Source of the DNA: Pseudomonadales bacterium
Lineage (GTDB): Bacteria > Pseudomonadota > Gammaproteobacteria > Pseudomonadales > UBA7434
Direction: 5' to 3'
Length of the DNA stretch: 24,000 nt
NCBI GenBank assembly: GCA_049665845.1
Contig: JBATGO010000211.1
Span: 1,640-25,639 of the forward strand
The notes under the pieces are model-generated. The model did no database searches. It saw only the letters and a program-made list of their open reading frames with translations, and was not told the origin of the DNA. The first letter of the stretch is position 1, and every line of letters starts with the position of its first letter. Position numbers and translations under genes: made by a program. Of this stretch, positions 6,311-23,400 are shown in pieces.

Positions 6311-6844
6311 CTAGTGCAGCGCGAGGATCTGCGCTGAATAGTTAAGAATATTTTCCATCCAGTCGTACAGCGGTTCTTCCGCGCCCGGCAGGAAGGTCAC
6401 CAGCTGGTCTGACGCAAGAATCGACTCAAACGGCTGGCGGCTGTCAATCAGCACCACTGCGGGCAATTGCGCCTCGCTGGTGGAACCTTCCGAATCGACC
6501 AGCGCCATGCCTACATCGATATCCAGCACCACAAAGCGTTCATCGAGACGCCCCCGCAATGCCGGGTCAGCCATGTAATGGGATAGCAGCGCACAGCGAT
6601 CGCAAGTTTCGGTGCGCAACACGACCAGCACAGGCTTCTGCTGCGCGCGGCCCGTATGCCAGGCAGATTCAAGCATTCGCAGGGTTTCCCCGGGTGCCGC
6701 ATCGCGCTCGTCGGTGGTTGCGGTGGATTGCCTGACCTCGCGATCGAGTTGGTCGGATGCACCTGCTGCAAGCAGCGCAGGCTCGGTTGCGCAGGCGGTG
6801 GCGAACAGTGTCAGCGCGGCTAGCGTCAGTATTATTTTTGGCAT
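6311..6844 (-). CDS. Secreted (possibly lipoprotein) thioredoxin-fold protein with a CxxC motif
   Basis: The N-terminal signal peptide is MPKIILTLAALTLFATAC, ending in either the possible lipobox ATAC or an AxA signal-peptidase site. Further on, KPVLVVLRTETCDRCALL resembles the thioredoxin-like strand-CxxC-helix arrangement. No closer family could be assigned by eye. Confidence 0.6.
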   Translation of the reverse strand: MPKIILTLAALTLFATACATEPALLAAGASDQLDREVRQSTATTDERDAAPGETLRMLESAWHTGRAQQKPVLVVLRTETCDRCALLSHYMADPALRGRLDERFVVLDIDVGMALVDSEGSTSEAQLPAVVLIDSRQPFESILASDQLVTFLPGAEEPLYDWMENILNYSAQILALH

Positions 6845-6971
6845 AGCGATACCCTTTGGCGGAACGCCGGGACAACGCGCCCCGACTGATCACTTAATAG
6901 CCAGCGAATACCGTGCCGCAATTATTTAACTTGTTTTTTTACAATTAGTTATAGAGATAATATACAGTACT

Positions 6972-7001
6972 TTATTAGACAAATGACTGGTTAACAGTCA
7001 A
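6972..7001 (-). promoter_or_regulatory. Candidate sigma-70 promoter (TTGACT-N18-TAATAA on the minus strand) inside an AT-rich island upstream of the thioredoxin-fold gene
   Basis: The reverse complement of 6996-7001 is TTGACT and of 6972-6977 is TAATAA, with an 18-nt spacer. The -35 overlaps the small inverted repeat gactg-gttaa-cagtc (6985-6999). This is a motif match only, and it would imply a leader of about 120 nt. Confidence 0.3.
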
Positions 7002-7112
7002 ACAATTCGACAGTCTCTATGCTTGCAGGCCCGCCTCGTCCAGCTCCGGTATTACAGGCGCAAACACTGCGCCAGGGATAATTACAGCAGCCAACGGCGC
7101 GGTGACAGAAGA

Positions 7113-7739
7113 TCAGGCCGAGGTGTGCAGGCCGCACTCACGGCCGTCCTGGACTTTGGTTGGATCAAAATACTTGCGCGTACTGGGCAGCTCGTGGGCC
7201 TGCATATAGTCCTCGACCTGTGCGTCACTCCAGTAAAAGATTGGCGCAACCTTGAGAATACCCCGCGCGTCCATGCTGACGATATCAAGGGTTTTGCGAT
7301 GCTCGGTCTCGTGCTGGCGAATGCCGGTCAGCCAGATCTCCGGCTGCAGGGTTTTTAATGCGCGGTCAAAAGGTTCCAGTTTTACCTGCCGCGTGAACTG
7401 CGCATGCGCTTCTTCCTCATCGACAGTCGGGATACCGCCCATAATGGCGTTGCGTCGCTCCGCGGTGATTGCCGGAATGAAGACCTGCATATTCAGTGAC
7501 ATTTGATTGATGAGGCGCTCGGCAATGACATAGGTTTCGCGCAGGTTGTAGCCGGTATCTACCCATACCACCGGCATTTCCGGCGCTATCTGCTGCGCGA
7601 GATGCAGCATCACGGCCGCGTTGACACCGAAGCTGGTGGTCGAAATAGTGGCGCGGTTTTGCGCGACCGCCCAGCGAATAACATCTTCCGCACTGGCATC
7701 GCGCAGTTGCCTGTTGATAGCGGGTAAATCCATATCCAT
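7113..7739 (-). CDS. cysH: Phosphoadenosine phosphosulfate (PAPS) reductase family protein, CysH-like
   Basis: TTSFGVNAAVMLHLA...VVWVDTGYNLRETY...KLEPFDRAL...WLTGIRQHET and the C-terminal RECGLH motif are typical of thioredoxin-dependent CysH. The CC...CxxC Fe-S cysteines of APS reductases are absent. At 208 aa it is shorter than E. coli CysH. Confidence 0.75.
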   Translation of the reverse strand: MDMDLPAINRQLRDASAEDVIRWAVAQNRATISTTSFGVNAAVMLHLAQQIAPEMPVVWVDTGYNLRETYVIAERLINQMSLNMQVFIPAITAERRNAIMGGIPTVDEEEAHAQFTRQVKLEPFDRALKTLQPEIWLTGIRQHETEHRKTLDIVSMDARGILKVAPIFYWSDAQVEDYMQAHELPSTRKYFDPTKVQDGRECGLHTSA

Positions 7740-7856
7740 TGCAAGGGTTCTTCAGGTCGAAAAGCTGCGGCGCGAAGATAATGGAAAAGTGGCGCGAGTG
7801 CCAATAACCTGCGTGAATAACCTTATAACCGTGCCAGGCGCACTATCAGTACAGCA

Positions 7857-8606
7857 TTATTTCGGCTGGCTCAGCCTGCCCAGCGTCATGGTGACCGGCA
7901 GGCGAGCGTTTCTTTTTCCCCAGTGCGCGGCCATCAATGCTGCATAGCGACGCTTCAATGCGGCCATATCCAGCGGCTGCTTCGAAGCCAGCACGACGCG
8001 ATTTTCGTAACCCGCTTCACGCAGGCCCAGTGCGTGGGGAAAACCCGCCGTATCCTGCTGGTACAGCGCCCTTGCCTCACGGCTGTGCACACAGTTGGCG
8101 ACCAGCAATCCAGCCGGAGCGAGGTGCCTTTGCAGGGTGCGGCGCCATTTATCGTCCAGCGCCACTGCGCGCTGCGGCCCTGCTTCGCCCTCGCCAAACA
8201 GGTCGTCGATAATCACATCGAAGCGCTGCCCGCCCGCGCGCTGCAGCCAGGTGACCGCATCACTGCAATGCAGGCTACAGGCATCACTGCCGAGACCCAG
8301 ATAGCGTTTCGCCAGCCAAAGGTGAAGCGCATCGAGATCGACACCGGTGAGTTCGGCAGCGGGAAAATAATCGGCAATCTTTTTTAGCGCGGCACCGCAG
8401 CCGACGCCGAGCATCAGCACGCGGCGCAACGATTGGGGGGGGCGCGCGCACAGCGGTATCCACAACATATCCCAGACGCCGCCATTCAATGGCCGCGCGC
8501 CGTTGTACTGGGAGTGGAATACACCGTTGCGGTACAGGCGCAACGAATGGCCGGCGCGACGCAGCTGGTAGTGTGTTCCGGCGTACTGCGCCGACCAGAG
8601 CAGCAC
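7857..8606 (-). CDS. Class I SAM-dependent methyltransferase / spermidine-synthase-like protein
   Basis: VLMLGVGCGAALKKI is SAM motif I (GxGxG). It is followed by ELTGVDLD and FDVIIDDLF (acidic loops) and preceded by LRLYRNGVFHSQY, resembling the spermidine-synthase N-terminal hairpin. The track ORF starts at ATG 8675 but would overlap the degQ-like 3' end by 65 nt with a Cys-rich, non-native-looking N-terminus. GTG at 8606-8604, just after the degQ stop, is the more likely start. Confidence 0.7.
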   Translation of the reverse strand: MLLWSAQYAGTHYQLRRAGHSLRLYRNGVFHSQYNGARPLNGGVWDMLWIPLCARPPQSLRRVLMLGVGCGAALKKIADYFPAAELTGVDLDALHLWLAKRYLGLGSDACSLHCSDAVTWLQRAGGQRFDVIIDDLFGEGEAGPQRAVALDDKWRRTLQRHLAPAGLLVANCVHSREARALYQQDTAGFPHALGLREAGYENRVVLASKQPLDMAALKRRYAALMAAHWGKRNARLPVTMTLGRLSQPK

Positions 8607-8610
8607 TGCG

Positions 8611-9984
8611 CTAACGCAGCACGAGATAGAGCGCGGTATTGCCGCGGACAATTCGCAACAACAGGTTACCTGCACTTCGACTCGCCACGTTGCTCATTTC
8701 TTCGAGGCTGGCAACGCGCACGCGGTTTACCGACACGATCAGGTCGCCCTCACGCAAGCCGGTACCGGCAGCTGGCGAATTAATTGCGATTTTTTCCACC
8801 AGTACGCCTTCAGCTTCTTCGCTATCTCGCAGGCTCGCGCCTTCGAGCGAGGGATGCAGCGCTTCGGCATTGCGCACAACTTCCTGATGGCGCTCACCGA
8901 CTCGCACCTTGATCTCGCGTGTTTTGCCATCGCGCAAAATACCCAGTTCGAGCTTGTCGCCGACCCGCCTTGCACCGACCTTGTTGCGCAATTGGCCGGC
9001 CGTATCGATCGGCTTGCCATCCACCGCAATGACGATGTCGTCGGGCTTCAGGCCGGCTTTTTCTGCCGCGGAACCCTCCTGCACTTGCGCGATCACAACG
9101 CCACGCTGGTTTTTATCAAGCTTGAACGCTTCGGCCATTTCCGGGCTGAGGTCCTGTATCACCACACCGAGCTGGCCACGGCGCACCTCGCCATGCTCGA
9201 GAATCTGCTCGACACTGTGCCGCGCCATATTGACGGGTATCGCCAGGCCAATACCGACATTGCCGCCGGTCGGCGCAATGATCGCCGTATTGATGCCGAC
9301 CAGTTCGCCGCGCAGGTTGACCAGTGCACCACCTGAATTGCCCGGGTTGATCGATGCATCAGTCTGGATAAAGTTTTCGTAGCCTTCAATGCCGAGGCCC
9401 GAACGACCCAGCGCGCTGACCACGCCGCTGGTCACCGTATTCTGCAGGCCAAAAGGGTTGCCGATCGCAATAACGAAATCGCCCTGCTGGAGGTGGTCCG
9501 AATCGGCTATCGGCAACTCAACCAGGTTTTTCGCAGTGATTTTCAGCACCGCTATATCAACTTCGGGATCCGAGCCGACCAGCTCGGCCTCGAAACTGCG
9601 GTTGTCTGCGAGCGTAACCACAACCTTGTCGGCGCCATCCACAACGTGCGAATTGGTTACCACCGTGCCCGCTGCAGCGTCGATAATCACACCGGAGCCT
9701 GCGCTCTGCGCGCGGCGCCGCTGTGGCTGGCTGTTTTGGGGCACGTCAAAAAAGCGCCGGAAAAACGGGTCCTGCAGTAATGGGTTAGCAACTGTGCGCA
9801 CGGTGGTTTCGGTAGAGATATTGACTACCGCAGGGTTCACACGCTTGAGTAATGGCGCGAGGCTGGGTACCGGTTCGCCACTGCTGTCGTAGGCAGGCAA
9901 ACCGGCCTGCAAGGCGGGACTATGCACTGCAAAGGCAAATATCAAAAAGTATAAAGCGCGTCTGGCATGCTCGTACATCGGCAA
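8611..9984 (-). CDS. degQ: Periplasmic serine endoprotease of the DegP/DegQ/MucD (HtrA) family with two PDZ domains
   Basis: The signal peptide is ARRALYFLIFAFAVHSPALQA. The trypsin-like triad context is TNSHVV (His), DIAVLK (Asp) and TDASINPGNSGGALVN (Ser). Two PDZ-like segments follow (GVVIAQVQEGSAAEKAGLKPDDIVIAVDG and GVLVEKIAINSPAAGTGLREGDLIVSVN). Confidence 0.92.
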   Translation of the reverse strand: MPMYEHARRALYFLIFAFAVHSPALQAGLPAYDSSGEPVPSLAPLLKRVNPAVVNISTETTVRTVANPLLQDPFFRRFFDVPQNSQPQRRRAQSAGSGVIIDAAAGTVVTNSHVVDGADKVVVTLADNRSFEAELVGSDPEVDIAVLKITAKNLVELPIADSDHLQQGDFVIAIGNPFGLQNTVTSGVVSALGRSGLGIEGYENFIQTDASINPGNSGGALVNLRGELVGINTAIIAPTGGNVGIGLAIPVNMARHSVEQILEHGEVRRGQLGVVIQDLSPEMAEAFKLDKNQRGVVIAQVQEGSAAEKAGLKPDDIVIAVDGKPIDTAGQLRNKVGARRVGDKLELGILRDGKTREIKVRVGERHQEVVRNAEALHPSLEGASLRDSEEAEGVLVEKIAINSPAAGTGLREGDLIVSVNRVRVASLEEMSNVASRSAGNLLLRIVRGNTALYLVLR

Positions 9985-10046: not shown

Positions 10047-11216
<1,170 letters not shown>

Positions 11217-11288
11217 TGTAATACCGGAACTCCCGTCGTGAGGCAGTCAGCAAGACTTTGAATCCCGGTTGATGGTTTTTGTGGCGAT

Positions 11289-11407
11289 GCCGGGATCCGT
11301 ACGTGCTGGCCTTTCCATGACCGTCCGGCGGCATGGACGCCGCCGGCGAGCGTACACGGATGTATTTACAGCGTGTCATGGAAAGGCCAGCACGCACGGG
11401 TACCGGC
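11289..11407. repeat. Nested imperfect inverted repeat (33-nt arms with 3 mismatches, 53-nt centre carrying its own 8-bp hairpin) between convergent hemB and the acyltransferase gene
   Basis: The left arm is gccgggatccgtacgtgctggcctttccatgac (11289-11321). The right arm is gtcatggaaaggccagcacgcacgggtaccggc (11375-11407). The inner 20 nt are perfectly complementary. The centre contains ccggcggc-atggac-gccgccgg (11325-11346). There is no flanking U-run typical of an intrinsic terminator. Confidence 0.8.
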
Positions 11408-11453
11408 TGCTCCTCATATACTCACGCACCAGGCGCTTCACTTGCCGAAAATT

Positions 11454-13265
11454 CTAGCTCGCTTCGGATTGCAGTGCCGGGGTTTCGCGCTCTAGCCAGT
11501 AGGCCATGTAATCACTGGCGCCCTGTTTCCCGAGGTAACGATTCAGGTAACGCTTTGGCACCTTGCACAGATCGACCAGGATCAGCCCATCCAGTGAATC
11601 GTTGAAAACCTTGTTTATTGAAAAGCACACGAACTTGCCGTTCAGCGAAAGGTAATGACGCAACAGCGTTGGCAATGCCTTGCCCGGGTCGCAGCAACCC
11701 ACAAGCTTGTTGACCAGCGGCACATGGCTTAGCGCTTCCAGTTCCTTGCGACTCCAGATTTTGCCGGATACTTTCAGCGGTGCCAGCGGTGCAACGTCCT
11801 GCAGGAATTTCTGTTCGGCGCGAAACGACGCGAGCATCGATTCGGCGATCAGCGCGCGCGACATATCGGAGTGCTCGCGCGAAATGCTGACCGCGCCGAA
11901 AAGCGTATTGAATTCCGGTCGCGCTGCAACATAGCGCCCGATGCCGCGCCACAACAGGTCCAGCGCGGCGGGTTTGCGCTGGTAGTCGGGGTGTACAAAG
12001 GAGCGGCCGAGTTCCAGCGGGTTGCCAAGCTTCTCGATATACGCTTCGTCCAGCGAATACAGGGTGCGCGCATACAGGCCGTCGATACCGCGCGCGGCAA
12101 TGATTTCGCGCACGCGACCCAGCCGGTAACCACCAACCACTTTGTGGGAGCTTTTATCCCAGGCAAATACGTGCAGGTAATCGCGGTCAAAGCGATCGAC
12201 ATCGAGCCGCTTGCCAGTACCTTCGCCGGCTGCGCGAAAGGTCTCTTCGCGCGCCAGTCCAATCGCATCCATCAGCGGGCCCAGTTCGGCAAAGCTTGCG
12301 ATATAAACGTCGAAAGGATCGGACTCAACCACGCGATTTGCACGCAGTGTGTCGAGCTGCAACTCGAGGCTGCCGCGATGCTCGCTGGCGTAGTCGCCCG
12401 ATGATTGCAGCAGCGGTTCCAGCGCGAGGGTCTGTGATCCGGGAGCACCCGCTTGCCTGCCCACCAGTTCGCAGGCCAGCCGCAGGCAGGCACTGATTTC
12501 GGCGTCCGACTCCAGATGGCTGAATTCGCGCGCACCGAGTAATTCGCCAACAATAAGCCGCAGTTGCGTACCGCGCTTGTTGGTCAGCTCGCGCGGCAGC
12601 ATTGCAGTGCGAAGTACGGGATGCACCAGCGACAAGGTGTAAAAAGCAGCGCTGTTGCGCGCAGCGACGTTTACCGGCAATACCGTGGCGCCGGTTTTGC
12701 GCAGCAGCGATCCGACAAAGCGATGCCAGGGATGCTCACTGACGCGCCGCTCACCGGGATTGAAGGTCGCCACTTTACCGGCGGGAAATACCAGCAGCGC
12801 AGCACCGCTGGCAAGGTGCCGCCTGGCTTCGCGAATGCCTGCAATATTTTCCCTGGCTTGCTGGGGCGAGAGGATATCGACGCCGATAAAAACGTCGCGC
12901 AATTCAGGAATGCCGTCCAGCAGCCGGTTGGTCACCACGCGCGTATCGGGCCTGTAACGCAGCATCTCGCGCAACAGGGCGATACCTTCCAGCCCGCCGA
13001 GGGGATGATTGGCGACCACCAGCAATGGTCCGTGTTGCGGCAAGCGCGGCAAGACCTGGCGCGGGTCATCGAGCTGCACACGCACGTCAAATGCGCGCAG
13101 CGCGCTATCGAGGAAACGGTCCGGCGGCGCGCCGTGTTCACAGCGCTGGTAAACTGCCGTGAGCTTTCTAAGGCCCAGCACGTGCTCGGCAATTCTTGCC
13201 AGCAGCGGGTTCGCCAGCGGCAAACTGAATGGATTAATGTTGCTGCCGTTCATTGACACGCTCAT
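11454..13265 (-). CDS. Fused lysophospholipid-acyltransferase-like (N-terminal) and GNAT/OlsB-like N-acyltransferase (C-terminal) protein, with the OlsF-like aminolipid synthase architecture
   Basis: The N-terminal half has LLVVANHPLGGLEGIALL (acyltransferase His motif, here H-x5-E) and ALLVFPAGKV (FPxG block). The C-terminal half has YLHVFAWDKSSHKVVGGYRLG...GLYARTLYSL...LELGRSFVHPDYQRK, typical of OlsB/'hemolysin-like' GNAT N-acyltransferases. At 603 aa its length is similar to OlsF. Confidence 0.75.
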   Translation of the reverse strand: MSVSMNGSNINPFSLPLANPLLARIAEHVLGLRKLTAVYQRCEHGAPPDRFLDSALRAFDVRVQLDDPRQVLPRLPQHGPLLVVANHPLGGLEGIALLREMLRYRPDTRVVTNRLLDGIPELRDVFIGVDILSPQQARENIAGIREARRHLASGAALLVFPAGKVATFNPGERRVSEHPWHRFVGSLLRKTGATVLPVNVAARNSAAFYTLSLVHPVLRTAMLPRELTNKRGTQLRLIVGELLGAREFSHLESDAEISACLRLACELVGRQAGAPGSQTLALEPLLQSSGDYASEHRGSLELQLDTLRANRVVESDPFDVYIASFAELGPLMDAIGLAREETFRAAGEGTGKRLDVDRFDRDYLHVFAWDKSSHKVVGGYRLGRVREIIAARGIDGLYARTLYSLDEAYIEKLGNPLELGRSFVHPDYQRKPAALDLLWRGIGRYVAARPEFNTLFGAVSISREHSDMSRALIAESMLASFRAEQKFLQDVAPLAPLKVSGKIWSRKELEALSHVPLVNKLVGCCDPGKALPTLLRHYLSLNGKFVCFSINKVFNDSLDGLILVDLCKVPKRYLNRYLGKQGASDYMAYWLERETPALQSEAS

Positions 13266-13274
13266 TGTTATCTT

Positions 13275-14018
13275 TTACGCGCAGACGCGACGCTGCAGCA
13301 ACAGCGGCGCGCCGGCCCTGTTTTCGCAGGGCGGTCCGTCGGTATAACTGATCGATACCTGTTCGGGCCACACCTGTACAAAACTCTGGCTCACGGTTTG
13401 GGCAAACTCGCGGTGCATACACACGGAGCTGACCGCCAATGGCTGGCCGGAAATTTCGTGCAGTTCATGGTCGATATGACAACAGTGAAAATGTTCAAGC
13501 GCCGCAAGATCGCCTTGCGCACCAACGCGTTCAAAAAACTCGCGCCGCACCGCCTGCACGCCGCCGGTTTCGTAGGATGATGAGGTGATCGGCATCTCTG
13601 CGGGCAAGCGCTCGAGCCTGCGCGTGTCCCAGCGCCAGTGCGCAACCGTGTTGGCGAACACCACCAGCTCAAAACCGCGAAATCTTTGCAGCGGCAGTTT
13701 TTCCAGCGAATCCATAAAGTCGTCGATGCTTTCACTACCTGCGAGCGCAGTGACGACTTCGCCGCGGCTCACCACGTCATCGTGCCCGGGTTCAGGCGCA
13801 GCGTAGTTGTTCAGCAGGCAGATGGTGAGGCCAAACTGGTTGACTGCCAGCCAGGTGCCACCTGCGTCTGCATCGGTGGGTGCAAGGTAGGCAACCCCGC
13901 TAGCGGTAAATTTGCGCGAAGGCGGCGCTGCACGCTGGCGTGTTTTCAACTCATCGCGATTGAAAAACAACGCGTAACCGTCGCCCGAATTATTGTAGCG
14001 CCAGGTCAGCGTGCACAT
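13275..14018 (-). CDS. NRDE family protein (TANGO2 homologue)
   Basis: The product starts MCTLTW (Met-Cys N-terminus) and contains ALFFNRDE (the eponymous NRDE motif) and DADAGGTWLAVNQFGLTICLLNNY (the GGTWL block also seen in human TANGO2). At 247 aa its length is typical of the family. Confidence 0.85.
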   Translation of the reverse strand: MCTLTWRYNNSGDGYALFFNRDELKTRQRAAPPSRKFTASGVAYLAPTDADAGGTWLAVNQFGLTICLLNNYAAPEPGHDDVVSRGEVVTALAGSESIDDFMDSLEKLPLQRFRGFELVVFANTVAHWRWDTRRLERLPAEMPITSSSYETGGVQAVRREFFERVGAQGDLAALEHFHCCHIDHELHEISGQPLAVSSVCMHREFAQTVSQSFVQVWPEQVSISYTDGPPCENRAGAPLLLQRRVCA

Positions 14019-14542
14019 CGCTCAGCCCCCTTGTATTGCAAGGTGGCAGGCGCAAACCCGAAATCGTCCGGCGCCAGCTCACTGACGCCCAGCAGGCGCA
14101 GCAGCGCTGCAATACTTGCCTGGTGATGTACTGTGTGACTATGCAGGAATACCAGCTCGCGCGCCACCGATGAACGCAGCGGTATTTGCCCGCTGGTACC
14201 GCTTGCCTGCCTGACGAGCAGATCGCGGTCGGCCAGGTCGAGCTCCTGTATTGCATTGCGCAGATTGTGCAGGCGCTGCTGTGCGCTTTCAGAACTGGCT
14301 TCTACCTGCGCATCGCGCGCCCTGGCATCGTAATCGATCAAGCCGGTTGTAAGTCCATGCAGAAAACAGGCGTAGTGATCAAGTGCGTGGCGCACATGCA
14401 AACCTACCGGGGAGTCGAACAGCGCAGATTCGTTATTGGTATACAGCACATCGTCGAGCGCCAGCAGCACCCCGTCGAGCTGGTCCAGCAACTTCACGTT
14501 ATCTTCGACAAGAGTGGATAGATTGACAGGCAAACTAGGCAA
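14006..14542 (-). CDS. DinB-superfamily (DinB_2-like) four-helix-bundle protein
   Basis: His-rich helices VGLHVRHALDHYACFL and ELVFLHSHTVHHQASIAALL match the DinB/YfiT-type metal-binding His pattern. The track start is TTG (14542) with a weak SD, so the exact start is uncertain. The 3' end overlaps the NRDE gene start by 13 nt. Confidence 0.6.
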   Translation of the reverse strand: MPSLPVNLSTLVEDNVKLLDQLDGVLLALDDVLYTNNESALFDSPVGLHVRHALDHYACFLHGLTTGLIDYDARARDAQVEASSESAQQRLHNLRNAIQELDLADRDLLVRQASGTSGQIPLRSSVARELVFLHSHTVHHQASIAALLRLLGVSELAPDDFGFAPATLQYKGAERCAR

Positions 14543-14559
14543 TGCAAGCGTCCCGCGGA

Positions 14560-14581
14560 GTACTGCTCCAGGCGGCAGTAC
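14560..14581 (-). promoter_or_regulatory. Hairpin (7-bp stem gtactgc/gcagtac, 8-nt loop) between the addA-like stop and the DinB-like start, with a possible extended -10 TGATACAAT (reverse complement of 14624-14632) upstream
   Basis: Both are seen directly in the sequence. No U-run follows the hairpin, so it is not a canonical terminator. It could be a leader structure or an RNA-processing or stability element. Confidence 0.25.
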
Positions 14582-14648
14582 AGGAAATATACCTGGCCGG
14601 TGGCCGCCCGGCGACCGCTGCGAATTGTATCACCTGCCTCACTTCGCA

Positions 14649-17600
14649 TCAGACCCCGGAAATTGGTAATAGTCGATCCAGCAGGGGGTAGTAAAGCGCG
14701 GCCACGATCTCCTGCGGCGCACAATGGTCGAAGCTTGCCAACAACGCACGATAGCGCAGCACCTGGTCGCGATAGTGGCCTGCCTGCTGCTGCAGGAAGT
14801 CTGCGACTGCTTCGCCCGCAGCTGGTTCCGCAATCTTGTAATCGACCAGCCAGCGCCTGCCTTCCGGGTCGATAAATGTGAGGTCCATCCTGGCTCGATG
14901 CCGCACGCCGTCGGCATCCCGATACCACAGTTCCCACTCACAGGCTGCGCCCTGCGCCGCGCGTTGCAACAGCTTCCTTCCTTCGCCAGCCTGCGTAACG
15001 CCGCGCACAGCGCGCTGCAAACGCTGCACTGCCGCTTCCATACAGTCAGGCGTGACGCCCAACTGCCTTAATCGTTCGCGCCAGTGTCCATCCTGAGCAC
15101 CCGGATCCAGCCCCTTGCAGTGCCCAGGCCCCTGCTCGACCGCTAGCTGGAGCAGTTCATGCACGCAGCTGCCAACAGCCTGCATCCAGCGCGGCTGTGC
15201 ATACAGTATCGCGCGCGCTGTATTCATTTCAGCCTCGTTTACCCCTGCGGCAGGAAATTCCGCGGTAGCCAGGGGCATACCGGCCTGCTCGACCGCAAAA
15301 CCAGCCAGCGGTGCGTCACCGGTGGGCGCGGCTGCGGTGGGACGCTCGTCATCCAGCCAATGCGGCCGCGCGAACAGCGCCGCTGAGCTAAATCGTTTTA
15401 ATGGTCGATAGTACGGTTGATCGACCACCCCGGTTTGGGCTGCCGAAGCGGTCGACACCACCAGCTGTGCCTGCTCGCGTAGTGCGGGCCACAGTTTCGC
15501 GAGCAAACTCCTTTGCGGCGGCGGCTGTAATGATGCGGCATCGACTTCACCAACATGACCCACGGCACAACGCATTGTCGCGGTCAACAGCAAACGACTC
15601 CTCGCCCTTGTTGCAGCTACGTAGAGCAGTCGCGTACTTTCATAATCGCCCTGCAACTTTTTTTCGCTGCGCAGGAATTCGTAGATGCCGCGCGCCTTTT
15701 TGTGCTTGCCGTCGCCGGCCGCTTTTGTGCTTGCATCAGGCAAGGCACCGATTGACTCACTCCATGCAGGGTATTCCTCATCGCCAAGGGTTTTCGGATA
15801 AAGCAATACACCGCTGCTGCCATCGGCAAAAACGCGCTCGCCGAACTCGAGCAGGGCGCTGTCTTCACTGCGCGGCAGGCCCGCCAGGCCGGGTAGAATC
15901 ACGGTGTCAAACTCCAGCCCCTTGGCTTTGTGCATGGTCATTGCGTGCACGCCGCCTTTGCTCAGTGAGGCTTGCTCGGCGCGCAGCATATCCATGCGCT
16001 GCTGCAGTAATTCGCCGTGCAGGATTTCACCGCGATGCCGACACTCGGCGTCGAATTGTTCAAGCTCGGTAAAATATTGCGCCACGACCGCTGCGGCGTC
16101 CGGTTCAGCAGCCAGCGCCATCAGCGCCTTGCCACCCAGCGCATGCCAGCATTGCTCCACACTGTCGCGCAGACCTGCGCGCTGCCGCAAGCGCCAGGCA
16201 TCGCCAACAATATTCGCCAGCCGCAGCACACGCGCTGCAGCATCGTCTGCAAGCAAACCCTGCATATGCGGACAAAAAGAACCGCATTCGCAGGCAGATA
16301 CCAGCAACTGCGGCAGCGCTTCACATTGCGCACAGCTGTCCAGGTGATCGCGAAGCACTTGTAACTCGGCGAGCGGCAATCCACACCAGGGCGCGCGCAA
16401 CAGCGCCCACCAGGCGATATCGTCGTTAACCGACAGCAGCGCCCGGGTCAGGGCAAGGCAATCGGCGACCTCCTCGCGCTCTGACAGCGCATCGATACCG
16501 CTGTTCTGTACCTCGATACCTGCGGCCCGCAACACCGGCAGTATTTTTTGCAGGTGACCGCGCACGCGAACCAGGATAGCAATGCTGGCATGCGGCCGTA
16601 CGGCGAGCTCGCGCTGCACCAGCTCGAGCACCTTGTGCGCCTCCAGCACATCCGCGTCCTCCCCAACGCAGGCATAAAATGCCACCGGTCCCGCGGCGGC
16701 TGTTGCGGCGCCGGCGGCAGCCGTTGCAGTGCCGGCAACTGCAGCAGGCACCGGCTCCGCCTCTGCAGTACCGGGCGGCGCCACCGCAACTGCCCTGGAG
16801 AAGGTAACTGCGCCGCGCGCACTGTCCTCGCGCTGCGGAAATGCAGCGCCCAGGTAGCGATTGAACCAGTCGACCAGCCTGGCAGAGGAGCGAAAATTCT
16901 GCACCAGGTCAATGCGCTGCAACGGCAAATCACCGAGTGCACCGCGTCGGGCCTGCAAAAACAGTTGCACCCTGGCGGCGCGAAAAGCATAGATCGATTG
17001 CATCGCGTCGCCGACAATGAACAGCGTCCGAGCGGGCTCATTTTGCGTGGCATTGAGCTGCGCCCATTCACCGCTTAGCGCGCACAGCAAACGGTACTGT
17101 GAAATTGACGTATCCTGGTATTCGTCGACCAGAATGTGGCGCAGCCGACGGTGCCAGGCATAGGCAGTGCCCACCGGTACCGTGGTGGCAGGGTCGTATT
17201 GCGCGCCGCCGGCCTGTGGCTGATTCGCACCGAGCACGCGCAATGCTGCTGCGGTAATTTCACTGTGGTCACAGCGACGCTGTTCGGCAAAAACCAGTTG
17301 CAGGTGAGCGTACAGTTGCACCAGGCAGTGCGCCATTGCAGCCAGCAGTTCATCCTGTGCCTGGCCGTAACCGCTGCTCGGCAGGTTTGACAAGCTCTGC
17401 AGTGCTGCCAGTGTTTCCTCATCGGCGGCGATTTCTGCGCAGATCTGCAGCAAGTGCTGTTTGTTTGCGGCGCTGCGCGTACGCATCTCGGCGGGCCAGG
17501 ATTTGTCAATCGGAAATCCCTGGCGTTTATCGATCGTGCGGCGCGGCCCGGACTTGCCGGTAAGCAGCAATGCCAGCAAAGCGCGCCATTGCGGTAATGC

Positions 17601-18527
17601 TGCGATCGTATTTTCCGGCAAGGCCTGCAGTCCAGCCAGCTTCGCAATCGGGCTGGAGTTCGCGAGCGCCGGGTTGTCGCGCAATACGCTGCCAGCAAAG
17701 CCGGCGATTGCGACGAGCTCAGCTGCGTAACGCTGCAGCTGTTGCCGCGCATGCGCGAGCAGCTCTGCAATCCATTTTTCCAGACATTGCGCGAGTTCTG
17801 CAGCGCTGTCGCGACCTGCTTGCGCTGCGCGGGTAAGATCCACCATCGACGCCAGCCACTGGTCCCGGCCCTGCAGCATTGCAGCAAGCATTCCCGACAA
17901 TCCCTGCACATCGCCGCGGTAATAAGCGAGCAATCGCCGCAGCGCCCGGTCATCGCTGCCCGGCTCGCCCAGCGTCGCAAGCATTTCGCCAACCGCCTGC
18001 TTGTACAGCCGCTGCGGATCATCCACGGGTTGCAGTGCAGCGCCGAGCAGGCTGAGTACCGGTTGTTCGCTGGCGACGCTGTAACAGAAACTGTCGATAG
18101 TCTGCAGGCGCAGGCGCGCGGGGTTGTGCAGCAACTGCCAGTTGCGCGCGCTGTCACGTGCCAGCGCTGCACGCGCAAGTTGCCAGGTAGCCCGGCGGTG
18201 CAAAGCTTCGGGGGCTTCAGCCTGCATGCCAAGCGCGAGTGCGCCAAGCAAGCGCTCGCGCATTTCTGCCGCCGCCTTGCGCGTGAACGTGATCGCGAGA
18301 ATCTCTTCGGGTTCATCGACAACAGCCAGCAAACCGAGCATGCGCTGCGTCAGCAGTTCGGTTTTTCCCGATCCGGCTGGCGCCGTCACGACACAGGAAA
18401 CTGAAATATCCAGTGCATGCGCACGCGCGCCCGCATCGACGGGCAGCGCGCTGCCGGTTGCTGCCACAGCGGGCAGCTGAATTACAGGCACAGCGTCGCC
18501 AGGCACGAATTCACCGCCTTTACTCAC
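14649..18527 (-). CDS. addA: UvrD/Rep-type helicase fused to a C-terminal PD-(D/E)XK (RecB-like) nuclease, AddA-like
   Basis: The ORF starts at GTG. Motifs are Walker A VVTAPAGSGKTELLTQR, motif Ia ILAITFTRKAAAEM, motif II ILVDEYQDTS, FIVGDAMQSIYAFR, MTMHKAKGLEFDTVIL and LLYVAATRARSRL. The C-terminal nuclease motifs are GSCVHELLQ, RMDLTF...WLVDYKI and QVLRY. The length is 1292 aa. Confidence 0.85.
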   Translation of the reverse strand: MSKGGEFVPGDAVPVIQLPAVAATGSALPVDAGARAHALDISVSCVVTAPAGSGKTELLTQRMLGLLAVVDEPEEILAITFTRKAAAEMRERLLGALALGMQAEAPEALHRRATWQLARAALARDSARNWQLLHNPARLRLQTIDSFCYSVASEQPVLSLLGAALQPVDDPQRLYKQAVGEMLATLGEPGSDDRALRRLLAYYRGDVQGLSGMLAAMLQGRDQWLASMVDLTRAAQAGRDSAAELAQCLEKWIAELLAHARQQLQRYAAELVAIAGFAGSVLRDNPALANSSPIAKLAGLQALPENTIAALPQWRALLALLLTGKSGPRRTIDKRQGFPIDKSWPAEMRTRSAANKQHLLQICAEIAADEETLAALQSLSNLPSSGYGQAQDELLAAMAHCLVQLYAHLQLVFAEQRRCDHSEITAAALRVLGANQPQAGGAQYDPATTVPVGTAYAWHRRLRHILVDEYQDTSISQYRLLCALSGEWAQLNATQNEPARTLFIVGDAMQSIYAFRAARVQLFLQARRGALGDLPLQRIDLVQNFRSSARLVDWFNRYLGAAFPQREDSARGAVTFSRAVAVAPPGTAEAEPVPAAVAGTATAAAGAATAAAGPVAFYACVGEDADVLEAHKVLELVQRELAVRPHASIAILVRVRGHLQKILPVLRAAGIEVQNSGIDALSEREEVADCLALTRALLSVNDDIAWWALLRAPWCGLPLAELQVLRDHLDSCAQCEALPQLLVSACECGSFCPHMQGLLADDAAARVLRLANIVGDAWRLRQRAGLRDSVEQCWHALGGKALMALAAEPDAAAVVAQYFTELEQFDAECRHRGEILHGELLQQRMDMLRAEQASLSKGGVHAMTMHKAKGLEFDTVILPGLAGLPRSEDSALLEFGERVFADGSSGVLLYPKTLGDEEYPAWSESIGALPDASTKAAGDGKHKKARGIYEFLRSEKKLQGDYESTRLLYVAATRARSRLLLTATMRCAVGHVGEVDAASLQPPPQRSLLAKLWPALREQAQLVVSTASAAQTGVVDQPYYRPLKRFSSAALFARPHWLDDERPTAAAPTGDAPLAGFAVEQAGMPLATAEFPAAGVNEAEMNTARAILYAQPRWMQAVGSCVHELLQLAVEQGPGHCKGLDPGAQDGHWRERLRQLGVTPDCMEAAVQRLQRAVRGVTQAGEGRKLLQRAAQGAACEWELWYRDADGVRHRARMDLTFIDPEGRRWLVDYKIAEPAAGEAVADFLQQQAGHYRDQVLRYRALLASFDHCAPQEIVAALYYPLLDRLLPISGV

Positions 18528-21520
18528 AGCGTTTCCCGACCGCCAGACGGTGCTGCGTTGTGCGCAGTCGCCGTGCGCTGTGCAGTGGAGGGGGCGGCGC
18601 GCTCAAACGTCGTGCGATCGACAAAATCCCTTGCCAGCAATATGTAGGGCGCGTCCTGTGCGTCGCGCGTCTTGCGCAAACCGGGCTCGTGCGCAGCGAA
18701 GCCCCGGACTGCTTCTGTCAGGAGTTTCTGCAGGGCGTCGCGCCAGTGCAGCAGCAATGTGTCGAAGTTGCGGCGGTTCGCAGTTTTGCGCGCTGCAGGA
18801 TCAGCCAGTCCGTCGTGCGCAGCCGCGGCGGATGCCGGAGAGGCAATACCGGACAGGCCTGGCTCACTACCACCAATCCGCGCATAGGCAACACCGGCGA
18901 GGGCTGCATTATCCTGCAGCAGTGCCAACGCGTAAGCCGGCAGTTGCGGTGCACTGACACGTGCATCGAACCAGCCCGCTAGCGACACACCACCCGTTTT
19001 ATAATCAAGCAGCAGCTGGCTGCCGTCGGCAAGCCGGTCGACGCGATCGGCCTTACCGACCAGGTGTGCATCTGCTGTACGGTAAACCAGCTTTTGCTCG
19101 AGCGCGCTAACTTCAAACGCTGGCCGCTTGGCTTCAAGCGACAACCAGGCGAGTATTTCACGCTGCAACACCTCAAGCTGAAGCGCCAGTAATGTGGGTG
19201 GCACAGGTCGAAACCTGGCGCGTTGCACGCGTGTTGCTGCCGCCTGCAGCGCAGTGTCGACGCGTGCTGCGCGCACATGCGCAGGGCAATGCAGCAGTGC
19301 CTGCTGCGCCTGCAGTTGTTGCCAGATGCTTTGTAGTGTCGCGTGCACAACGATACCGCGCGCCCGGTAGCCCAGGCCCTGCTCGAGCGGCTGCCATGGT
19401 TCAACCCCGAGGCGATGGCGCAGGTAAGCATGCAGCGGGCTGCGCGCGTAATCGCCCAGCATCCTGACGCTGACTTGAGCGGGCCCGTCGTCCGGCTGTG
19501 GCAGCAGCGGCAGGCCGTAACTGTCTTCTACCTTTTCCAGCAAATCCTGCGCTATACCAGTGCGATCGCGCTGCAAGCTGGCGGCGCAGGATTCATTGCG
19601 CTCGCGGACCTCGATCTGCGCGAGCTGTAATTGCGCGCGCACCAATGGCGACAGGCCGCACGGTACCGCATCAAGCTGCAACACGCAGGACATTACCAGC
19701 TGCCTGGTGCTGGAAAGCAGCCTGGCCGTGCTGTTACTGGCATATGCGAGCTCGCGTTCTGCGCTGGCGCCGGGCATCTGCCGAGCGGCCTGGAAACCCG
19801 CAGGCAACAAGGCAGCACTGCCAGCGCGCAGCGGCCACTGCTGGTCCGACAGGCCGCAGATCCAGAGGTAGTCGAACAGCTGCCCCTCGGCCTCCAGCAC
19901 ACCGAGTAACTGTACCGGCGGTCGTGCCGGGTCGCGCCGTGTTTGCGCATGAAATACTTCGCCTGTGAGCTGCTGCCTAAAAAAATGCAGCGCATGGGCT
20001 GCATCGATATCCCCCAGCAGCGCGTCGGCGCGCCACACCTGTTCGCACCATTCCAGCAGCGCCGCGTGTTGCTGGTACTCTGTGCTATCAAGCGCGCGCG
20101 CGCCCGGCCAGCCAAAGGCGCGCAGCAACGCCAGTGTGCGCTGCAGCCAAAGCGATACCGGCGCCCTGCTCCGCGGCTGGTCTATCCCACTGGCGACGCC
20201 ACCGACCTTGTCGCGAAAACAGCCCAGCAAAACTTTTTCGGCACGCGCCAGCGCGGCACTGTGTGCACCGGGTTGCGCTGCAAACCAGGCCAGCAATTCG
20301 CTCAACTCATCGAGCCGGAAGGATTCTTCGCCACTTGCATAGATCGCCTTGAGCACGGCAGCGCGCGCCGCGCAATCGAGTCCTCGCGGCCACAGATAGG
20401 GCGTGTTCAGCAGCGCGCTCCAGCTCCCGCGCGACAGCGGGCCGATCGCCGCTGCGAAAAAATCGAGAAAAACCCGCACCAGGCCTACCGACGCCAGCGC
20501 TTCGCCTGCTGAAATCTCAAAACGGTCATACGCATCAGGCGCGGCCTCCGCACGCGCCGCGACGCCAGCATCGGCTGCTGCTGAAAATACAGCGCGAAAA
20601 ATTCGCGCCAGCGCAGCGCGCTGGCTTGTAAGCTCGGGCACTACCACGGCAACACGCGCGGCCGGCTCGCCAGTTTTCAACTGCCGCGCCCATACAGCAG
20701 CGCGCTGCCATTCCTGTTGCTGTTCGGCGCAGCCTAGAACCTCTGCGTGGTATGGCCTGCGCGCTAAACAGTAACTGGCGTTGGCACTATCCTGCAGCAG
20801 CACATCATCGCTTCCTTGCGCGCCTGGCAAGGCAGTCGTGGCAGGTGCTAGTTTGCAGTCAACTTGTGCGCCAAAAGCCTTAGCGAGTGCAAGCTGGATT
20901 GGTGTCGGCGAGTTGAAACCGTACAACGCCAGGCCGCCAGGCGCGCCGCCAGAAGCATCGGCCGACGCATGGCCTGCGGCGCCTGCATTAGCGACACAGC
21001 GATGCAGCAGTTGTCTGTCAGTTTCGGCAAGCGCAAGTAATTGCTGCTGCAGCTGCCAGCGTGTAAGCAGCCCGCGATCCTGCAATTCGCGCTGCAGCGT
21101 CGCGTACCAGCGCAGGAAAACCTCGCCATCACTGAAACTCCCCAGCTCGAAGCGGTGCACATCCGGGTCCAGCTGCCATTCGGCCAGGCGGGTCGCGGCG
21201 CGCTGGCACTCCGCAGCGACCTGCGAGGTGGACAGCAATCCGGGGGGTGCGTCGGCAGCAACAACCTGCTGCCAGAGCAACAGTTCTTCCGCAACATCAA
21301 GCTGGCGCGCGACCGGCAACATACCCGCGAGCAACGCCTTGCGCGCGAGTTCGTCCACCCATGCAGAAAACGGCAGAGCCCGCGGCAAGCGCCACACTGC
21401 ATCCGGGTCGCGAACTCCCTCAGCGAGATATTCGAGCAGCCAGGCCGCGAGACGATTGTTCGGCGTGATGATAAGGCCGAAGTTGCACAGTGGAATTAGC
21501 GCCGCGTTGCCCGATGACAT
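18524..21520 (-). CDS. addB: AddB-like PD-(D/E)XK nuclease family protein (probable partner of the AddA-like helicase-nuclease)
   Basis: The protein is 998 aa. The C-terminal nuclease motifs are GKADRVDRL...LLLDYKTG and QLPAYALAL (QxxxY). I found no Walker A GxxGxGK[ST] anywhere in the protein, and no Cys residues after the DYK motif. Its stop overlaps the addA-like GTG start (GTGA, 18524-18527), implying translational coupling. Confidence 0.75.
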   Translation of the reverse strand: MSSGNAALIPLCNFGLIITPNNRLAAWLLEYLAEGVRDPDAVWRLPRALPFSAWVDELARKALLAGMLPVARQLDVAEELLLWQQVVAADAPPGLLSTSQVAAECQRAATRLAEWQLDPDVHRFELGSFSDGEVFLRWYATLQRELQDRGLLTRWQLQQQLLALAETDRQLLHRCVANAGAAGHASADASGGAPGGLALYGFNSPTPIQLALAKAFGAQVDCKLAPATTALPGAQGSDDVLLQDSANASYCLARRPYHAEVLGCAEQQQEWQRAAVWARQLKTGEPAARVAVVVPELTSQRAALARIFRAVFSAAADAGVAARAEAAPDAYDRFEISAGEALASVGLVRVFLDFFAAAIGPLSRGSWSALLNTPYLWPRGLDCAARAAVLKAIYASGEESFRLDELSELLAWFAAQPGAHSAALARAEKVLLGCFRDKVGGVASGIDQPRSRAPVSLWLQRTLALLRAFGWPGARALDSTEYQQHAALLEWCEQVWRADALLGDIDAAHALHFFRQQLTGEVFHAQTRRDPARPPVQLLGVLEAEGQLFDYLWICGLSDQQWPLRAGSAALLPAGFQAARQMPGASAERELAYASNSTARLLSSTRQLVMSCVLQLDAVPCGLSPLVRAQLQLAQIEVRERNESCAASLQRDRTGIAQDLLEKVEDSYGLPLLPQPDDGPAQVSVRMLGDYARSPLHAYLRHRLGVEPWQPLEQGLGYRARGIVVHATLQSIWQQLQAQQALLHCPAHVRAARVDTALQAAATRVQRARFRPVPPTLLALQLEVLQREILAWLSLEAKRPAFEVSALEQKLVYRTADAHLVGKADRVDRLADGSQLLLDYKTGGVSLAGWFDARVSAPQLPAYALALLQDNAALAGVAYARIGGSEPGLSGIASPASAAAAHDGLADPAARKTANRRNFDTLLLHWRDALQKLLTEAVRGFAAHEPGLRKTRDAQDAPYILLARDFVDRTTFERAAPSTAQRTATAHNAAPSGGRETL

Positions 21521-21610: not shown

Positions 21611-22363
21611 CTACCACTTTTCGACTACGTCGACATGAAAGAATTGCCCGCGATAATGGCAGATAACGCCAGTGTCGGTTATTGAGCGCAGGCGCAACTG
21701 GCTGGTGATCATCTGCCCTTCCCGCAGACGTCTGCCGTTGATAATAATCGTGCGTTTTTCCGGTGCCTTGCTGAAAACATGGAATGAAAATTTCAGATCC
21801 GGCACCGTGGACTGGTAATCGGCCGGAAACTCCCACAACTCTTTGACCAGGTGCCGTGGCGGCAGCGGGTCATCGCTTGCATACAGGCGACTGCCAGCCT
21901 GGAATTCGCCTGCCTGCGCGGATACCGGATCGACAGGGATCTGCCCGGCCTGGCTATAGCCTTCGCCGGAATGCGCCCCGGCCTGGTTCGCCCGTTCCTG
22001 TGATACTTGCTGCAACGCTGCTTGGCCAGGTTGTTGTGACGGCTGTTGTGACGGCTGATGTGGCGGTGGTTGCAACGATTGCTGCGAAGGTTGTTGCAAG
22101 GATTGTTGCGATGCCGGCTGCTGAGCGTTACCCCGCAATGCTTGCGCCTGCCCTGCGGCAAACTGATCGTGCAAACGTGGCCACAACCAGCTTGCAATAA
22201 ACACCAACAATACCATCGATAGCAACAATAGCAGCGCGCGCGCCCAGGCCGGCGCGGGTTGCCTGTGCCGTGCCGCACCCGCTTGCAGCGAATAAACGTC
22301 AGGCCCCTTGCTGCGCTGGCGCTCGTCCTCGGATTTCTTGATCGCATCCAGGATAAATGACAT
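21611..22363 (-). CDS. gspB: Type II secretion assembly factor GspB (ExeB-like)
   Basis: The N-terminus MSFILDAIKKSEDERQR is typical of GspB. A single TM segment follows (ALLLLLSMVLLVFIASWLW), then a Q/P/S-rich linker and a C-terminal domain PDLKFSFHVFSKAPEKRTIIINGRRLREGQMI...VICHYRGQFFHV. It lies immediately downstream of gspA. Confidence 0.8.
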   Translation of the reverse strand: MSFILDAIKKSEDERQRSKGPDVYSLQAGAARHRQPAPAWARALLLLLSMVLLVFIASWLWPRLHDQFAAGQAQALRGNAQQPASQQSLQQPSQQSLQPPPHQPSQQPSQQPGQAALQQVSQERANQAGAHSGEGYSQAGQIPVDPVSAQAGEFQAGSRLYASDDPLPPRHLVKELWEFPADYQSTVPDLKFSFHVFSKAPEKRTIIINGRRLREGQMITSQLRLRSITDTGVICHYRGQFFHVDVVEKW

Positions 22364-22365
22364 CG

Positions 22366-23382: not shown

Positions 23383-23400
23383 AACGACGACCCCTGGCGA

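Follow-up and report, generated by a model that had tools for sequence, protein, structure and literature searches.

A DinB-like and NRDE/TANGO2-like gene pair associated with OlsF- and OlsB-type acyltransferase genes: a candidate accessory unit of bacterial aminolipid synthesis

Aminolipids are major phosphorus-free membrane lipids of environmental bacteria. Ornithine lipids are produced by the two-gene OlsB/OlsA pathway in Sinorhizobium, Rhodobacter and Brucella, and a bifunctional ornithine/lysine lipid synthase, OlsF, is found in Serratia proteamaculans, Vibrio cholerae and Flavobacterium johnsoniae. Human TANGO2 underlies a severe metabolic disease, and its function is disputed between heme transport, acyl-CoA binding and a hydrolase role. 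Relatives of both OlsF and TANGO2 are encoded in the locus described here, which lies in a 24,000-nucleotide (nt) stretch of DNA (the window) from the metagenome-assembled genome (MAG) of a Pseudomonadales bacterium (assembly GCA_049665845.1, contig JBATGO010000211.1, positions 1,640 to 25,639). Genes for a DinB-like protein, an NRDE/TANGO2-like protein (hereafter NRDE) and an OlsF-like fused acyltransferase follow one another on the minus strand. What is new is an aminolipid synthesis cluster with a conserved, undescribed accessory DinB–NRDE pair.

A review of aminolipids published in 2026 recognizes three synthesis pathways, OlsBA, OlsF and OlsHI, and reports OlsF homologues in Pseudomonadales and Cellvibrionales (PMC12971839). 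The accessory steps that it covers are hydroxylation, N-methylation and a transfer of taurine that depends on ATP and for which no gene is known, and it makes no mention of TANGO2, NRDE, DinB or ATP-grasp (PMC12971839). Unlike these pathways, whose described accessories are hydroxylases, a methylase and a taurine transferase, the window has a DinB–NRDE pair. No description of an association of NRDE/TANGO2/DUF833 proteins with aminolipid genes or with DinB was found in open-access papers and preprints, and a first-pass annotation of the window, according to which no described pathway combines the three families, held good across the same literature.

The three genes are tightly packed. The open reading frame (ORF) listing places the DinB-like gene (178 aa, TTG start) at 14542–14006, the NRDE gene (247 aa, starting ATG-TGC, that is Met-Cys) at 14018–13275 and the OlsF-like gene at 13265–11454 (603 aa). 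Read base by base, the DinB-like stop codon TGA (14008–14006) falls within the NRDE gene, whose ATG begins at 14018, so that the two genes share 13 nt, ATGTGCACGCTGA, at 14006–14018. The NRDE stop codon TAA (13277–13275) is followed by a spacer of 9 nt (13266–13274) and then by the first OlsF-like ATG at 13265. An identical OlsF-like protein in the public annotation (P0165, 599 aa) starts at the next ATG, 13253, which gives a gap of 21 nt; the packing is tight whichever start applies. The head-to-tail arrangement first proposed for the three genes, with its 13-nt overlap and 9-nt gap, was thus confirmed by both the ORF listing and direct reading of the sequence. So was the expectation that no internal promoter or terminator separates them: a consensus scan of 11000–15000 predicted no sigma-70-like promoter, and no terminator was found at the gene junctions, the four terminator-like hairpins of this interval comparing with 3.8 expected by chance. 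The DinB-like, NRDE and OlsF-like genes are therefore shown to be packed for co-expression. The transcription unit may reach further upstream, as the stop codon of an AddA-like helicase gene lies only 106 nt away with no terminator predicted between, and the intervening region (14543–14648, minus strand) could be either a promoter region or a read-through junction. Downstream, the gene string ends because hemB converges on it from the other strand.

The overlap between the first two genes is far from a local peculiarity. Among 75 related loci, ranging from Gammaproteobacteria to Acidobacteriota, the 13-nt DinB/NRDE overlap is exact in 42, and a further 26 have another overlap or a gap of at most 12 nt, giving 68 of 75 in all. 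Recurrence of the identical overlap in 42 loci from several phyla places the packing beyond chance. The shared bases read ATG-TGC-AC.. in the NRDE frame and ..TGT-GCA-C..-stop in the DinB frame. A stop/start overlap conserved to this degree argues for translational coupling and fixed stoichiometry, and hence the two products probably form a complex. No fused DinB–NRDE protein occurred among the top 150 representatives of the NRDE profile search described below. The same overlap accounts for the conserved C-terminal 'CA[RQ]' of the DinB-like proteins, since the NRDE start codons (ATG-TGC-AC) are there read in the other frame; the apparent conservation of the protein is here dictated by an adjoining gene.

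The evidence that ties the pair to lipid synthesis comes from a survey of gene neighbourhoods. One genome per GTDB species was scanned with the NRDE profile, yielding 360 relatives, of which the best 80 were taken with 10-kb flanks. These loci were analysed first with tblastn and then by ORF clustering, Pfam and NCBIfam scans and cluster-derived hidden Markov models (HMMs); tblastn with the OlsF-like protein of the window missed the split OlsB-like genes in most loci, and the clustering and HMMs corrected what had appeared to be a limitation to one clade. A DinB-like gene adjoins NRDE in 76 of the 80 loci. On the same strand and within 5 kb, an OlsB-type GNAT gene is present in 66 loci, a PlsC-type acyltransferase gene in 62, a YHS-domain gene in 39 and an ATP-grasp gene in 22. 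When the count is restricted to the 60 loci whose flanks both reach 2.6 kb or more, the figures are 59 for DinB, 54 for GNAT and 50 for the PlsC type. The conserved core is therefore the DinB–NRDE pair together with a GNAT N-acyltransferase. By an estimate from genome size, chance alone would put a rare single-copy gene such as the OlsB-like one no more than 5 kb from a given gene in well below 1% of genomes, and for this reason the association reflects neither chance nor merely inherited synteny. A functional link at the level of the module between DinB–NRDE and the aminolipid synthase, suspected at first from the window alone, is strongly supported by these neighbourhoods and we regard it as highly probable.

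At least four gene orders occur, and the flanking genes differ between them. The order of the window, DinB-NRDE-OlsF, is found in twelve further loci (L001-L012). It is confined to one Pseudomonadales/Cellvibrionales clade, and in these twelve closest loci the whole AddB-AddA-DinB-NRDE-OlsF-hemB-DegQ block is syntenic; taken by itself, such clade-limited synteny is weak evidence for a functional link. A second order, DinB-NRDE-[ATP-grasp]-OlsB-OlsA-YHS-small membrane protein (c9), is present in Arenicella and other Gammaproteobacteria with at least two sets of flanking genes. A third, OlsB-[OlsA]-DinB-NRDE-c17, occurs in Acidobacteriota, Calditrichia, Gemmatimonadota, Planctomycetota, Chloroflexota and a Chlorobi-labelled MAG, and a fourth, ATP-grasp-OlsF-DinB-NRDE-YHS-small membrane protein (c9), in the cultured genera Agarivorans and Psychromonas. 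The order in a Porticoccus-like isolate is DinB-NRDE-ATP-grasp-OlsF. The adjacency of NRDE to OlsF, on which the initial proposal was built, thus survives in a changed form: the fusion adjacency is a property of a single clade, whereas in distant lineages DinB–NRDE accompanies OlsB/OlsA or a reordered OlsF.

As in the described OlsB/OlsA pathway, most of the other loci carry two separate synthase genes after NRDE, one for a 271-aa Acetyltransf_5 protein whose best model is OlsB and one for a 263-aa PlsC-type protein whose best model is OlsA. Unlike the proteins of that pathway, they score below the equivalog cutoffs, with 144–157 bits for OlsB (cutoffs 320/350) and 144–168 bits for OlsA (cutoff 300). 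The OlsB→OlsA gene order reverses the domain order of OlsF, and the fusion cannot therefore be a read-through of the split pair; this reversal, together with the full-length alignment of the fused protein to the OlsF model, indicates that two synthase lineages are linked to the same DinB–NRDE pair.

The window holds a reduced, three-gene form of a larger and widespread aminolipid module. In other loci its components extend to a membrane-anchored ATP-grasp ligase, an alpha/beta-hydrolase, a VTT/DedA domain, DoxX, a YHS protein and a small membrane protein. Approached from the side of the synthase, seven OlsF-like homologues of 47–53% identity were sampled and six examined; this check extended to OlsF homologues of at least 46% identity, a range that stops short of the canonical OlsF loci of Serratia and Vibrio. 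DinB-like and ATP-grasp genes adjoin OlsF in all six of these loci, and NRDE does so in four. The ATP-grasp protein is of the stand-alone kind in all six, five of which come from isolates; the window and L001-L012 are without it. Stand-alone membrane-anchored ATP-grasp proteins of ~365–395 aa, weakly similar to cyanophycin synthetase, Ddl and RimK, were encountered in L021, L027, L040, L047, L054 and L081-L088, among them a subset of the Arenicella-type loci. In the third gene order, c17 is a fusion of ~860 aa that joins an alpha/beta-hydrolase, a VTT/DedA (UptA-like) domain and an ATP-grasp domain. Its gene directly follows NRDE, at about +750 to +3450 from the NRDE start, in L026, L033, L038, L043 and L058 and likewise in L070, L073, L075, L077 and L080, and its hydrolase domain has a faint match to the OlsI O-acyltransferase model. 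MprF is a lysyl-phosphatidylglycerol synthase fused to a flippase. By analogy only, c17 may combine lipid modification with flipping in a similar manner, a single polypeptide uniting a lipid-modifying catalytic domain with a membrane domain that translocates lipids; in contrast to MprF, the c17 domains are unrelated to it, the chemistry would be based on ATP-grasp as opposed to tRNA, and c17 is absent from the window. Two apparent gene fusions were discarded as over-extended ORFs, a type of spurious long ORF met in several high-GC loci: an NRDE–ATP-grasp fusion in L079, where the HMM matches lie in different frames, and an NRDE–c17 fusion in L070, as coordinate arithmetic indicates.

The OlsF-like protein has the domain order of OlsF, an N-terminal PlsC-type O-acyltransferase domain followed by a C-terminal OlsB/GlsB-like GNAT N-acyltransferase domain. 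The former (residues 46–256; 12498–13130, minus strand) matches Acyltransf_2 (PF19576) with an E-value of 1.8e-15 and PF01553 weakly; its translation contains the motifs NHPLGGLEG (H87) and FPAGK (residue 160), and the first acyltransferase motif is H-x5-E as opposed to the classic H-x4-D. The latter (residues ~302–578; 11532–12362, minus strand) matches Acetyltransf_5 (PF13444) at residues 339–439 (E 2.6e-21), the NCBIfam models GlsB and OlsB at residues 302–576 and 352–577, respectively, and a cluster-derived HMM, GNATc2, at window positions 11529–12263. The NCBIfam OlsF model NF052615 aligns over the full length of the protein, more strongly than GlsB, GlsA and OlsB do; however, unlike the known OlsF proteins, the window protein reaches only 355.1 bits where the equivalog cutoff is 620, so that an ornithine-lipid label for its product is unjustified. 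The identification as OlsF-like made in the first-pass annotation consequently stands for the two-domain fusion and its full-length match but does not extend to ornithine lipid. By its sequence the protein belongs to the OlsF architecture family, outside the trusted ornithine-lipid equivalog.

The NRDE protein matches the Pfam family TANGO2 (PF05742) with an E-value of 3.8e-13 and 50.6 bits, above the gathering score of 22.6, as anticipated from its N-terminus (M1 C2) and its NRDE motif (residues 20–23). The match covers the N-terminal half of the protein only (profile positions 1–126 of 257). In an alignment of 36 homologues the following are invariant or nearly so: C2, N20 R21 D22 E23, D49, GGTW, LLN70, SRG, SSS and R203. 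An AlphaFold2 (AF2) model built on these 36 homologues has a predicted local distance difference test (pLDDT) score of 93 and a predicted template-modelling (pTM) score of 0.91. The best Foldseek match of the model is human TANGO2 (9bwa, chain 9bwa_B; E 3.4e-9, TM-score 0.62); the uncharacterized CV2077 (3gvz) is matched with a TM-score of 0.65, and the next matches are penicillin V acylases, bile-salt hydrolases, NAAA and acid ceramidase. By sequence, the family profile likewise retrieves TANGO2 chains from the PDB (E 4e-5), again in the N-terminal half only, and aligns C2, N20-R21-D22-E23 and N70 with C2, N25-R26-D27-E28 and N75 of the human protein. A crystallographic study of TANGO2 (2026) equates C2, R26, D27 and N75 with the catalytic residues C1, R17 and D20 and the oxyanion residue N81 of bile-salt hydrolase (PMC13044924). 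A search of 1.84 billion representatives returned 2,182 clusters at E<=1e-30, and in nearly all of the top 150 representatives the match begins at residue 1–2, as an N-terminal nucleophile requires. The model, the Foldseek matches and the profile alignment together bear out the idea of an Ntn-like fold with Cys2 in the position of the catalytic cysteine. The product is thus a predicted Cys-N-terminal-nucleophile (Cys-Ntn) enzyme of alpha-beta-beta-alpha fold.

The Met-Cys start, the NRDE motif and the predicted alpha-beta-beta-alpha fold are shared with human TANGO2 and with HtpA/SO0126 of Shewanella (NRDE/DUF833, PF05742). The protein of the window nevertheless represents a distinct subfamily, with 14% identity to TANGO2 and a match restricted to the N-terminal half, and this subfamily is strictly coupled to a DinB-like gene, a coupling unreported for TANGO2 or HtpA. 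The predicted fold, the N-terminal cysteine and, putatively, the Arg/Asp/Asn residues are likewise held in common with penicillin V acylase, bile-salt hydrolase/amine N-acyltransferase, NAAA, acid ceramidase and isopenicillin-N acyltransferase. Identities to this choloylglycine-hydrolase group are 9–14% and TM-scores 0.44–0.53, and, unlike its members, NRDE would need only removal of the methionine and no internal autoproteolysis. As modelled, the fold belongs to the Cys-Ntn branch that cleaves or transfers amphiphilic amides: the substrates of the penicillin V acylase, bile-salt hydrolase, NAAA and acid ceramidase group are of this kind and resemble the bond made by OlsB-type enzymes.

The call of a DinB-like domain for the first gene product is upheld by Pfam DinB (PF05163; E 1.9e-6, 28.4 bits, gathering cutoff 23), and its homologues match DinB_2 (PF12867) as well. 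H52, H136 and H140 are invariant in the family alignment, with H49 and H139 also in the conserved histidine set, and so are R51, Y71, R74, R76, R128 and E129. An AF2 model (pLDDT 93.5) consists of long helices and matches the YfiT/DinB 'metal-dependent hydrolases', the mycothiol and bacillithiol S-transferases and the DinB domains of EgtB, OvoA and OvsA, with weak Foldseek E-values (2e-3 or worse) and TM-scores of about 0.6 to YfiT, DinB and the mycothiol S-transferase. The protein is predicted to be a four-helix-bundle metalloprotein with a metal-binding histidine triad, spaced H...HxxxH as in the DinB/YfiT superfamily. It differs from members of that superfamily in its low identity to them (11–16%) and in a beta-hairpin insertion and an arginine cluster that are specific to its own family. 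Proteins identical to the three products carry the public labels 'NRDE family protein', 'DinB family protein' and 'GNAT family N-acyltransferase'.

Taken together, the observations are best explained by an aminolipid module in which NRDE acts as an amidase or transacylase on the N-acyl amino-acid bond with the DinB-like protein as its partner, a reading to which we assign a probability of roughly 0.55. The C-terminal GNAT domain of the OlsF-like protein would N-acylate an amino acid with a 3-hydroxy fatty acid, and the N-terminal PlsC-type domain would then esterify a second fatty acid to give an acyloxyacyl aminolipid. After removal of Met1, NRDE, in which the predicted catalytic set C2/R21/D22/N70 is intact, would attack the lipid-amide bond made by the GNAT domain through Cys2 and form an acyl-thioester intermediate. 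Hydrolysis of this intermediate would allow a detergent-like lyso-aminolipid to be cleared or recycled; alternatively, the acyl group might be passed to another amine, resulting in exchange of head groups or acyl chains. Acyl transfer of this type is performed by isopenicillin-N acyltransferase and has recently been shown for bile-salt hydrolase (cited in PMC13044924). The DinB-like metalloprotein would be the obligate partner of NRDE, kept at a fixed ratio by the overlapping stop and start codons, and would probably bind or activate the polar half of the substrate by way of its arginine cluster and a metal held by its histidines. The ATP-grasp ligase that other lineages anchor in the membrane, in some cases as a fusion with a DedA-type domain and an alpha/beta-hydrolase, would probably extend or modify the head group.

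Several points weigh against this explanation. We know of no NRDE/TANGO2 protein with a demonstrated enzymatic activity, and the chemistry proposed for DinB–NRDE is read from predicted fold, conserved residues and neighbours; the roles suggested in the first-pass annotation (head-group choice, amide hydrolysis, turnover) fare alike in these analyses. As the Pfam and PDB matches stop at the N-terminal half, S146/S147 and R158 or R203 are candidates, by spacing only, for the second oxyanion residue and the C-terminal basic residue of NRDE. Lysophospholipid acyltransferase activity was not observed for human TANGO2 (PMC11867700). None of the synthases of the survey reaches its NCBIfam equivalog cutoff. 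In six well-flanked loci (L017, L037, L051, L071, L074, L076) no same-strand GNAT gene lies within 5 kb of NRDE, although L037 does have a gene of the PlsC type in that interval; in the exceptional loci devoid of acyltransferases (L048, L064, L071, L076) the ORFs are uninformative. Sessilibacter and Exilibacterium retain ATP-grasp-OlsF-DinB with no NRDE in the locus, which indicates that the DinB-like partner can stay with the synthase when NRDE is not adjacent; the loci concerned are L085/L086 (Sessilibacter corallicola) and L087 (Exilibacterium tricleocarpae), each 11.8 kb and lacking NRDE, the last with a YHS gene. Lastly, about a quarter of the 80 loci are labelled Arenicella and about another quarter belong to unclassified gammaproteobacterial MAGs, so that the raw counts overstate independence. 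What carries the argument is how many different architectures and phylum-level labels are represented, and some of the binning labels of MAGs may be wrong.

The alternative that survives best, unlikely though it is, concerns the handling of acyl donors: NRDE would bind or hydrolyse acyl-CoA or acyl-ACP as a chaperone or proofreading thioesterase, and the DinB-like protein would deal with the CoA or phosphopantetheine thiol. Most DinB-fold enzymes with an established function are thiol S-transferases, and the 62 loci in which NRDE sits by PlsC-type acyltransferases are compatible with such a role. Human TANGO2 binds C16:0- and C18:1-CoA, and mutation of the NRDE motif abolishes this binding (PMC11867700). 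When TANGO2 is lost, lysophospholipids rise and phosphatidic acid falls, a change that indicates a defective PlsC-family acyltransferase step (PMC10042531); the acyl donors of OlsF, for their part, are still undetermined in the literature (PMC12971839). However, no characterized Cys-Ntn enzyme is a dedicated thioesterase (PMC12359130). The association with GNAT is moreover at least as strong as that with PlsC and persists where an alpha/beta-hydrolase domain replaces PlsC.

It is more doubtful still that the pair synthesizes a head group by thiol chemistry, with the DinB-like protein acting as a thiol S-transferase or in the manner of a sulfoxide synthase, NRDE trimming the conjugate as in EgtB/EgtC or mercapturate pathways, and the GNAT domain acylating the product, an unusual and possibly sulfur-containing amino acid. 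Ergothioneine synthesis already offers a case in which a DinB-domain enzyme is paired with a Cys-Ntn amidase, and the structural matches of the DinB model to mycothiol and bacillithiol S-transferases and to EgtB, OvoA and OvsA fit this scheme. DoxX-like and YHS proteins recur in the module, all the synthases lie outside the ornithine-specific equivalog cutoffs, and sulfur-containing aminolipids exist in marine bacteria (PMC8319176). Against this, the window protein consists of a DinB domain only, without the FGE-sulfatase domain needed by EgtB and OvoA; the NRDE fold matches the penicillin V acylase/bile-salt hydrolase/NAAA branch and not the glutamine-amidotransferase branch of EgtC; and no gene for thiol biosynthesis or sulfur assimilation is a conserved neighbour in the surveyed loci.

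A role in heme trafficking, with NRDE as a heme chaperone like that proposed for Shewanella SO0126 and the lipid link incidental, is highly improbable. Heme binding and an increase in cytochrome c content have been reported for the bacterial TANGO2 homologue HtpA/SO0126 (PMC10470608), and in the window, as in the 11 of the 12 syntenic loci (L001-L012) whose contig is long enough, hemB converges on the OlsF-like gene from downstream. No other architecture shows this adjacency, which is limited to the one syntenic clade, and a heme link based on it was accordingly rejected as clade-limited synteny. The neighbour of HtpA, SO0127, is a metal transporter and not a DinB protein; the heme role of TANGO2 is contested (PMC12782551), and in the crystallographic study heme binding was nonspecific (PMC13044924). 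The full predicted catalytic constellation also appears invariant in the subfamily, which would not be required of a passive chaperone.

Equally remote is the view that the three genes have no functional link, DinB–NRDE being a pair for general stress or detoxification, possibly SOS-controlled, carried along by inherited synteny: it can appeal to the naming of dinB genes for damage induction, to a LexA-box-like palindrome upstream of the DinB-like start and to the restriction of the exact DinB-NRDE-OlsF order to a clade with the whole AddB-AddA...hemB-DegQ block syntenic, but it is already largely refuted by the survey, in which the association survives changes of gene order, synthase architecture and flanking genes across at least seven phylum-level labels. 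The palindrome, TACTG-N10-CAGTA with a GC-rich centre, lies at 14561–14580, 19 nt upstream of the DinB-like TTG. It is the single exact match in the window, where three sites with at most one mismatch compare with 0.31 expected. None of the 12 syntenic loci has it upstream of DinB, and for this reason its gammaproteobacterial LexA/SOS-box outline was not used. A reading as anti-phage defence is unsupported: the DinB-like, NRDE and OlsF-like proteins have no PADLOC match, and the upstream helicase matches only generic UvrD/GajB.

Returning to the aminolipid module, a broader version of the amidase or transacylase reading can be put forward tentatively, with the odds against it. The NRDE/TANGO2 family would ancestrally be an acyl-lipid enzyme stationed beside GNAT- and PlsC-type acyltransferases, the bacterial DinB–NRDE unit would edit, exchange or recycle the N-acyl bond or the acyl donor, and together with the membrane ATP-grasp protein it would give rise to an uncharacterized class of aminolipids. 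If this were true, marine Gammaproteobacteria, Acidobacteriota, Calditrichia, Planctomycetota and other phyla would contain lipids of that class, and the bacterial operon would be a tractable model for the biochemical function of human TANGO2. Known aminolipid pathways have few tailoring enzymes, and the DinB–NRDE set, with or without ATP-grasp, points to unrecognized steps or new lipids; one possibility is an ATP-dependent extension of the head group, as in cerilipin, whose gene remains unidentified. The bacterial context places the TANGO2 family by the acyltransferase classes that the build-up of lysolipids in patient cells implicates, and gives a concrete, testable lipid-related role to a protein family of disputed function. 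Cultured and genetically accessible carriers exist in Agarivorans, Psychromonas and Arenicella, in which substrate and partner should be identifiable.

The genes that surround the cluster can be described briefly. Directly upstream of the DinB-like gene, at 14649–21520 on the minus strand, lie genes for an AddA-like UvrD helicase/PD-(D/E)XK nuclease (1292 aa) and an AddB-like PD-(D/E)XK protein (998 aa), which overlap by 4 nt. Their adjacency to the DinB-like gene is kept in about half of the syntenic loci; in the remainder an opposite-strand DoxX-like gene lies between the AddA-like and DinB-like genes. Two further genes occur outside the window only: one for a secreted START-domain (lipid-binding) protein, which converges on the OlsF-like gene in L003, L005, L007, L008, L010 and L011, and one for a DoxX/MauE-like membrane protein, which diverges from DinB in the same six loci and in L081. 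Upstream of the AddB/AddA-like pair, type II secretion system (T2SS) accessory genes (T2SSB/ExeB-like, AAA_22 ExeA-like and T2SSM) occupy 21611–23955 on the minus strand, an order kept in L001, L002, L004, L009 and L012. On the other side, the hemB ORF (porphobilinogen synthase; 10065–11216, plus strand) has a GTG start and 383 aa; its ALAD match begins at residue 60, and the true start is probably ~170 nt downstream of the GTG at 10065. Farther along, genes at 6311–8675 on the minus strand for a thioredoxin-like protein, a PAPS-reductase-domain protein and a spermidine-synthase-like methyltransferase adjoin the DegQ-like protease gene and look like ordinary housekeeping context.

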